Part shown: positions 16,239 to 16,610 of the stretch, piece by piece
Numbering within the stretch: position 1 is the first letter of the stretch
How the letters are laid out: each line of letters starts with the position of its first letter
DNA from: Escherichia phage ECO111 5-P
Sequence record: OR844765
DNA length: 64,000 nt
Direction: 5' to 3' (one strand)
Translations under genes and position numbers: made by a program
Notes under the pieces: model-generated
Seen by the model: the letters and a program-made list of their open reading frames with translations, nothing else
Told to the model about the DNA's origin: nothing
The model's database searches: none

Positions 16239-16549
16239 GAAGCCGGGTCGCTACCGGCAAGTCGTCGGACTGATGTTCCCTGAGTAAGGACTGGTCTTAA
16301 TAAATCTTTACGATTTGTTAATATCCCCTTACATCACAGCAGAAACGGCGCACAGAATTATCGATTCGAGGAAATATCTTTGCCGTAAGCCGAGTAGCGT
16401 TTTTGACGGAACGTTCGGATATGGTCGAGATATGGCCTTTTAAAAATATTGAGTAGCGTCAACTACTTAATAACCGGGTTCAAATCCCGGCGTTTCGTAC
16501 AAACACTTGCCTTAGCAGGTGGAACCCCGACAAGGTTGCCGCAAGGCTT
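16239..16549 (+). ncRNA. ORF-free structured region, candidate stable small RNA(s) with tRNA-like T-arm
   Basis: About 430 bp with no ORF of 60 aa or more; CCGGG-TTCAAAT-CCCGG T-arm-like hairpin at 16474-16490; GAGTAGCGT repeated; ends in a terminator; T4 carries stable RNAs in its tRNA region. Confidence 0.25.
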
Positions 16550-16578
16550 AGCCCCTTCCGAAAGGTTGGGGCTTTTTG
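16550..16578 (+). terminator. rho-independent terminator (GCCCC..GAAA..GGGGC + T5), copy 1 of 3
   Basis: agccccttccgaaaggttggggcttttt. Confidence 0.65.
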
Positions 16579-16610
16579 GTATCTAGGGCATAAAAATATT
16601 TCATAAAGAT

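Follow-up and report, generated by a model that had tools for sequence, protein, structure and literature searches.

In this study, the segment at positions 16239-16610 of the window (the whole stretch of 64,000 nucleotides that was analysed) was identified as the locus of two stable RNAs of T4-type phages, rnaD (species 2 RNA) and rnaC (species 1 RNA). Membership of these families was observed at three levels, namely sequence, synteny and fold. A preliminary description of the letters had proposed a counterpart of the stable small RNAs that T4 encodes beside its tRNAs, or a decayed tRNA; the first proposal was confirmed by blastn against the T4 genes rnaC (T4s001) and rnaD (T4s002). The genes themselves are already known: both are annotated in the T4 reference genome, and the species 1 and species 2 RNAs of T4-type phages were described in the 1970s. 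Taken jointly, this identity and the route of biogenesis proposed below are, in our judgement, very probably correct. The present analysis adds folds backed by covariation, a candidate kissing loop, a modular distribution with diverged rnaD homologs, and a record of annotation gaps. The candidate kissing loop, the independence of the two modules and the diverged rnaD-like RNAs of Karamvirus appear to be new details.

Identity and setting of the two RNA genes

When compared by blastn with the T4 reference genome (NC_000866), positions 16361-16499 aligned with rnaC at 98.6% identity over 139/139 nt, and positions 16235-16353 aligned with rnaD over its full length at 86.7% identity. Beyond 16233-16585, the comparison with the T4 tRNA region gave three short weak matches elsewhere and otherwise no alignment. 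Both genes share the strand of the tRNA genes, with rnaD directly upstream of rnaC across a gap of 6 nt. rnaC belongs to the tRNA region and precedes the operon terminator, ahead of which no other terminator was detected (Table 1).

Table 1. Coordinates of the RNA genes, their structural elements and the flanking signals in the window.
Feature	Positions	Strand	Basis or remark
tRNA-Met	15155-15229	+	ARAGORN; Rfam tRNA model 62 bits
tRNA-Arg	15258-15334	+	ARAGORN; Rfam tRNA model 62 bits
rnaD (species 2 RNA) homolog	16235-16354	+	86-87% identity to T4 rnaD
rnaD 5' hairpin P1, CCGG-GUCGCUA-CCGG	16242-16258	+	invariant, including the 7-nt loop GUCGCUA (18 homologs)
rnaD closing stem P2	16261-16267 with 16346-16353	+	invariant (18 homologs)
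rnaD central hairpin, long and irregular	tip ~16289-16326	+	tip replaced in other lineages
Spacer GAAUUA between rnaD and rnaC, 6 nt	16355-16360	+	sequence
rnaC (species 1 RNA) homolog	16361-16499	+	137/139 identical to T4 rnaC
rnaC acceptor-like stem, 7 bp	16362-16368 with 16491-16497	+	rnaC alignment columns 2-8 with 133-139
rnaC long hairpin H1	16369-16438	+	consensus fold of the rnaC alignment
H1 apical loop UUGACG	16403-16408	+	candidate kissing partner of the H2 loop
rnaC hairpin H2	16447-16472	+	consensus fold of the rnaC alignment
H2 apical loop CGUCAA	16457-16462	+	candidate kissing partner of the H1 loop
rnaC T-arm	16474-16490	+	rnaC alignment columns 116-120 with 128-132
Conserved 3' trailer (CAAACACUUGCC...), ~50 nt	16500-16550	+	with the terminator, 93.8% identical to T4
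Intrinsic terminator of the tRNA/stable-RNA operon	16551-16577	+	GCCCCUUCC-GAAA-GGUUGGGGC then U5

The rnaC homolog has the same predicted fold as T4 rnaC and differs from it by two substitutions, one of which is located in the T-loop (UUCAAAU here, UUCGAAU in T4). Its neighbours are also those of T4, with rnaD and the 6-nt spacer upstream and the conserved trailer and terminator downstream. For rnaD, the architecture is the same and the 5' hairpin, closing stem and internal loops are invariant, whereas the tip of the central hairpin differs and the last nucleotide is A here and C in T4. In the T4 reference genome, tRNA-Arg, rnaD (119 nt) and rnaC (139 nt) are annotated as contiguous, whereas here two ORFs (15353-15886 and 15894-16238) separate the pair from tRNA-Arg.

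Around 800 records of the phage collection matched the segment by blastn; all were T4-type phages (Tevenvirinae, 796 records), and in some of them rnaC was annotated under the match. The closest record overall was that of Mosigvirus vB_EcoM_NBG1, and ATK47, another Mosigvirus, carries an annotated rnaC at the corresponding position. The source of the window is an RB69-like Mosigvirus. No chromosomal or plasmid match to the rnaC/rnaD segment was found by blastn in 5,426 complete E. coli genomes. The folding z-scores were -4.4 for rnaC (MFE fold) and -3.2 to -3.35 for rnaD and, together with the ~800 matching phage records and a covariation far over controls, they place the segment beyond chance.

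Searches for known RNA classes were carried out on the same segment. ARAGORN called only tRNA-Met and tRNA-Arg, and neither a tRNA nor a tmRNA in the segment. The Rfam tRNA model gave no match in 16235-16610 at E<=10, and none at E<=0.1 on the rnaC homologs of three other genera. An Infernal covariance search, which the preliminary description had suggested as a check, assigned the segment to no Rfam family: among 4227 models, including YrlA and sRNA families, none matched at the gathering threshold, and at E<=10 the single match was a 16-bit minus-strand isrK hit at chance level. This outcome follows from the content of Rfam, which has no family for rnaC or rnaD.

Folds and distribution of rnaC and rnaD

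In order to define the fold of rnaC, 21 distinct homologs from Tequatro-, Mosig-, Karam-, Winkler- and Tegunavirus-type phages were aligned; they originated from GenBank phages and from a pattern search of IMG/VR contigs, the pattern having matched 18 loci. The consensus comprised 47 pairs, for which 95.7% of the cells were paired as compared with ~40% when the partners were slid. Compensatory changes were observed in 17 pairs, and none of 500 shuffles reached the observed values. The acceptor-like stem is followed by a 3-bp stem leading into H1, a 9-nt linker, H2, one nucleotide and the T-arm. In the acceptor-like stem, position 3:70 covaries between A-U and G-C across the homologs, and Tegunavirus has Watson-Crick pairs, U-A and C-G, in place of the two conserved U.U mismatches. 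H2 contains 10 bp, of which 8 covary.

The T-arm that had been noticed in the letters (CCGGG 16474-16478, TTCAAAT 16479-16485, CCCGG 16486-16490) was thus found in place and belongs to rnaC. That the segment holds no complete cloverleaf was right as far as tRNA calling is concerned, since neither ARAGORN nor Rfam called a tRNA and the combination of a D-arm, a 7-nt anticodon loop and a T-arm was absent. The description did not capture, however, that the 5-bp T-arm with its 7-nt loop stacks coaxially on the 7-bp acceptor-like stem, with compensatory changes, within a four-way junction. In the consensus model, rnaC is a cloverleaf-like four-way junction in which the acceptor/T-arm half is retained and the D and anticodon arms are absent. 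With a canonical tRNA it shares the 7-bp acceptor-type stem, the 5-bp T-stem with its 7-nt loop, the four-way junction and the residence in tRNA arrays; it differs by the lack of a D-arm, of a 7-nt anticodon loop and of an encoded CCA. Where a tRNA has its D-arm, rnaC has an arm of ~65 nt, and the anticodon position is occupied by a 10-bp stem with a 6-nt loop. Neither the tag-peptide frame nor the G3:U70 pair of a tmRNA was found, position 3:70 being A-U or G-C.

The T-loop is canonical in most lineages, but it reads UGCAUGC or UGCAUCC in place of UUCRAAU in three sequences (L024, L033 and Winklervirus), which weakens the case for strict tRNA mimicry. Across genera, rnaC is 77-86% identical, as compared with 52-73% for the adjacent isoacceptor tRNAs, and many unpaired positions are invariant in the alignments of both rnaC and rnaD. 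The rnaC covariance model detected a single copy in the window, at 166 bits, and one per locus among the fetched loci. A competing pairing, in which CGGAACG (16407-16413) inside rnaC pairs with the acceptor 3' strand, is perfect in T4-like sequences. It was rejected because it is broken in Karamvirus (A.C) and Tegunavirus, whereas the 5'-terminal pairing covaries.

The repeat GAGTAGCGT mentioned in the preliminary description does occur in rnaC, with one copy at 16392-16400 and one at 16451-16459. These are its only copies in the 64-kb window, where 0.22 copies are expected. When genera are compared, full conservation is limited to the first copy, while the second becomes AGTAGCGT, GGAGCGT or GAAGCAT. 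As an exact 9-mer, the repeat therefore characterizes this lineage and is not a defining motif.

The apical loops of H1 and H2 may be joined by a tertiary contact. Their sequences are complementary at 6/6 positions in 21/21 homologs and, in Tegunavirus, one compensatory change converts a C-G pair into U-A. The invariance and this single compensatory event suggest a kissing-loop interaction, as read from the aligned sequences; no mention of such a contact in rnaC was found in the searchable literature. Klebsiella phage KaAlpha has an unrelated sequence in place of the entire H1, which indicates that the conserved H1 sequence is dispensable in at least this case. The replacement still has UUGAC, inside a 17-19-nt complement of H2.

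For rnaD, 18 distinct homologs were aligned. The consensus had 96-97% of its cells paired and included 6 compensatory pairs, and the same architecture was obtained for the four divergent homologs that were folded. An A-rich leader precedes P1, and the internal-loop sequences are invariant across the alignment. The tip of the central hairpin occurs in three unrelated versions, each of which folds as a hairpin. A covariance model built from this alignment scored 146 bits on the rnaD of the window and detected diverged rnaD-like RNAs in Karamvirus-type tRNA arrays, with E values of 1e-6 to 1e-3. After addition of these Karamvirus homologs, 13 of 24 pairs were compensatory and 96% of cells were paired versus 33-44% when slid, in an alignment that is itself fitted to the model.

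A pairing between the two RNAs was also considered, as CGCUAC in the P1 loop of rnaD can form 6 bp with the repeated GUAGCG of rnaC in this phage. It was unsupported, because phages that have only rnaC retain GUAGCG and the loop of the Karamvirus rnaD-like RNA differs.

rnaC and rnaD, which are distributed over at least six Tevenvirinae genera, are independent modules. In Dhakavirus and several other loci, rnaD is present and rnaC is absent; the Winklervirus and Tegunavirus loci bear rnaC, and no rnaD-like RNA was detected in them. In Karamvirus, Winklervirus and Tegunavirus, rnaC is located in the gap between two tRNA genes, or just upstream of one: it occupies the whole interval from tRNA-Trp to tRNA-Gly in Karamvirus and lies between tRNA-Phe and tRNA-Trp in Winklervirus. 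In other genera, a spacer of the AAUUA or AACAA type separates rnaC from the CCA end of the preceding tRNA.

Public annotations largely overlook or mislabel both RNAs. The rnaD/rnaC stretch of NBG1 carries no annotation, and in many GenBank records two to four "hypothetical protein" ORFs are laid over the pair. In addition, the 3' 95 nt of rnaC homologs are labelled tRNA-Lys, tRNA-Met, tRNA-Phe or "tRNA-OTHER", with inconsistent anticodons (annotations and ARAGORN), for instance at 1247-1340 of L034 (MK327928), 8491-8585 of L030 and 7816-7911 of L023. The alignments and covariance models could correct these records.

One of the arrays, that of Enterobacter phage vB_VIPECLOM01 (L003), contains 14 tRNAs and an rnaD-like RNA at 433-533, directly after tRNA-Asn. 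It is followed at 534-673 by an unannotated stretch of 140 nt with an end-to-end stem of at least 13 bp and a fold z-score of -3.9; judged by this predicted fold, the stretch may be a third non-tRNA RNA of these arrays. Further unannotated gaps are present at 750-877 and 1037-1250.

Processing and possible functions

By Northern blot and RNA-seq, the T4-type RNAC and RNAD have been described as late RNAs of unknown function (PMC9697503). Stable accumulation of T4 rnaC, of ~140 nt, was shown by Northern blot (PMC9697503), and T4 rnaD is a stable RNA of about 120 nt (T4 literature, PMC9697503). Following the T4 literature, the whole tRNA cluster, including rnaD and rnaC, would be made as one precursor ending at the terminator at 16551-16577, and the two RNAs would accumulate as stable, late-abundant species of ~120 and 140 nt.

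The fold of rnaC provides a plausible route for their release. An acceptor/T-arm minihelix is the standard recognition unit of RNase P, and a role for this enzyme in the case of the T4 stable RNAs is part of the T4 literature of the 1970s-80s. With its 7-bp acceptor-like stem on a 5-bp T-stem closed by a 7-nt T-loop, rnaC would carry its own tRNA-processing handle. Since the minihelix is what RNase P recognizes, rnaC should be excisable from any position in an array: RNase P would cut its 5' end wherever it lies, and this cut, once the 6-nt spacer had been trimmed, would also release rnaD at its 3' end. The absence of an encoded CCA after the acceptor stem (...CGUUUCG-UA-CAAA) counts against this explanation.

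The function of rnaC and rnaD is stated to be unknown in the published accounts (PMC3014915, PMC9697503, PMC12685909), and no newer functional study of either RNA was found in the searchable literature. In a recent evolution experiment with the T4-like phage BW1, a single convergent SNP in the rnaD region (given as position 164264 of the BW1 assembly) increased virulence on E. coli ECOR34, with the RBG measure rising from 0.17 to 0.98 (PMC12685909). This link means that the locus may bear on the host range of therapeutic T4-like phages.

T4 phages with deletions of the tRNA region are viable on laboratory hosts, so any function of rnaC and rnaD must be conditional. The reading that we favour, tentatively and at well under even probability, is that both are protein-binding decoy or scaffold RNAs. 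It is preferred because of the invariant unpaired nucleotides, the compact fold, the tRNA-like character of rnaC and the replaceable tip of rnaD. According to this proposal, rnaC would mimic the shape of a tRNA in compact form, with two hairpins, locked together by the 6-bp loop-loop contact, in place of the D/anticodon half. For its part, rnaD would serve as a scaffold of protein size, its core invariant and its tip freely replaceable. Acting neither as tRNAs nor as mRNAs, both would bind a protein that recognizes tRNA or structured RNA, resulting in its titration or recruitment; a host tRNA-directed nuclease or a processing enzyme would be a candidate.

Comparable designs exist in bacteria. 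In tmRNA and in YrlA, a bacterial Y RNA-like molecule, an acceptor/T-arm mimic is placed on a non-tRNA body, is processed by tRNA enzymes and is bound by protein. The likeness of rnaC to these tRNA-like domains is one of concept: as opposed to tmRNA, rnaC has no tag reading frame, no G3:U70 pair and no tmRNA call by ARAGORN, and the YrlA family (Rfam RF02553) did not match the segment.

A more specific and more speculative form of the decoy proposal, which we consider unlikely as it stands, assigns both RNAs to anti-defence or host takeover. There, rnaC would titrate a host protein recognizing the acceptor/T-arm, e.g. a tRNA-targeting defence nuclease or a tRNA-processing enzyme, and the invariant core of rnaD would bind a host factor and thereby set host-specific infectivity. 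If true, this would fit the effect of the BW1 SNP on ECOR34 and would give a function to RNAs that have lacked one since the 1970s.

The other explanations rank, by our estimates, below the decoy or scaffold proposal, and the estimates taken together leave part of the probability unassigned. First among them, though improbable, is that rnaC and rnaD are cis-acting parts of the operon, i.e. 3' modules that guide or order cleavage by RNase P and RNase E, or that shield the precursor from 3' exonucleases, the RNAs accumulating solely through their tight folding. They are consistently found within tRNA arrays or at the 3' end of these, ahead of the operon terminator, and this agrees with such a role, as do the putative tRNA-type processing handle of rnaC and the treatment of both RNAs as parts of tRNA precursors in the T4 literature (PMC2330249). 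However, a passive structural buffer would need neither the invariance of the loop and bulge nucleotides nor the conserved contact between the loops. Furthermore, the position in the array varies by genus and each RNA occurs alone, so that a fixed role in the processing of neighbours would be hard to conserve, and the SNP in the rnaD region altered host-specific virulence (PMC12685909).

Ranked next, and also improbable, is the possibility that they are regulatory RNAs which base-pair with host or phage mRNAs through conserved single-stranded stretches, for example UUUAAAAAU of rnaC and, in rnaD, UCCCUG or the loop GUCGCUA. Several unpaired segments are indeed invariant, and the name "small regulatory RNAs" is loosely used in papers (PMC9697503). 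Nevertheless, no target is known, and the RNAs are almost fully structured, which leaves only short accessible stretches. Their mature 3' ends are also devoid of a terminator hairpin with a U-tail of the Hfq type, the terminator being located 50 nt past rnaC.

The suggestion of a decayed tRNA in the preliminary description corresponds to a further explanation, in which the segment contains decayed tRNA genes or other functionless relics that are transcribed because of their position. It was apt for the acceptor/T-arm half and the four-way junction that rnaC keeps, for the part of rnaC that tRNA finders occasionally call a tRNA, and for GUAGCG...UCAA, which on a reading of the letters resembles a tRNA acceptor/D-arm junction; some phages are also without one or the other RNA. 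The idea of decay does not hold against the strong purifying selection: rnaC is conserved above the neighbouring functional tRNAs, many compensatory substitutions uphold helices that are not those of a tRNA, and the RNAs persist in at least six Tevenvirinae genera. For rnaD, which is not tRNA-like, it does not apply. We consider this explanation very improbable.

The preliminary description was correct that no ORF of at least 60 aa touches 16239-16610, where the overlapping ORFs measure 37, 42, 34 and 45 aa. That the segment encodes small proteins, through the 42- and 45-aa ORFs, is scarcely credible and was rejected, since, although ORFs of 37-45 aa exist and automatic annotation calls them "hypothetical protein" in many relatives, the substitutions are compensatory in RNA helices, one-nucleotide indels occur inside the aligned region, the ORFs use TTG or GTG as start codons and run across the rnaD/rnaC boundary or over the trailer and terminator, and the homologs between tRNAs of other genera leave no room for them.

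The comparative picture obtained here (the cloverleaf-like rnaC with its loop contact, the core and tip of rnaD, the independent gain and loss, and the residence in arrays of other genera) can guide the design of mutants and pull-downs directed at function.

Terminator and neighbouring DNA

The strong terminator announced for the end of the segment was substantiated by its hairpin fold and by the annotation of a terminator at the matching place in relatives. It consists of GCCCC-TT-CC-GAAA-GG-TT-GGGGC (16551-16572), which folds as a hairpin, and TTTTT (16573-16577). A simple promoter and terminator scan missed it because of two U.U mismatches and flagged hairpin P1 of rnaD as its reverse complement. 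Transcription of the T4 tRNA cluster reportedly stops downstream of the species I gene (PMC2330249). The trailer is retained in phages without rnaC, where it directly follows rnaD (Dhakavirus L007 and L008).

The terminator sequence GCCCCTTCCGAAAGGTTGGGGC has a verbatim second copy at 32169-32190, which is followed by the late-promoter motif TATAAATA at 32197, and a near-palindromic variant is present at 32792-32813. The operon terminator appears to be a reused cassette. In ATK47 (L001 2857-3420), two terminator copies after rnaC enclose an unannotated ORF of ~470 nt (MKSYAEFLTEQ...). Dhakavirus has this ORF and, judged by matches that are ~540 bp longer, most relatives likely carry it too; it is missing from the window and from NBG1, where rnaC is followed by one terminator copy. 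These arrangements are consistent with gain or loss of the ORF by recombination between terminator copies.

Upstream of rnaD, the 177-aa ORF at 15353-15886 (+), located between tRNA-Arg and the phrog_3355 ORF, contains a T5orf172/MUG113 (GIY-YIG-like nuclease) domain and is absent from the closest relatives NBG1 and ATK47. By analogy with segB in T4, it resembles a mobile insertion of the endonuclease type within the tRNA region. At 16225-16245, the end of the ORF preceding rnaD (...ATG CCA AAA TAA) overlaps, with its stop codon, the 5' leader of rnaD, which in T4 follows a tRNA CCA end. This ORF end mirrors the CCAAA (tRNA CCA end and spacer) found ahead of rnaD in T4 and Dhakavirus; recombination at what was once a tRNA 3' end may have introduced the ORF.

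Right after the segment, at 16611-16645, a T4 early-promoter-like sequence (GTTTAC, 17 nt, TAGTAT) is accompanied by the motif TATAGACCTATCAAC, which returns as TATAGACTTATCAAC (~17005-17030) before the next small ORF. These elements resemble repeated promoter cassettes that would serve a series of small early genes.
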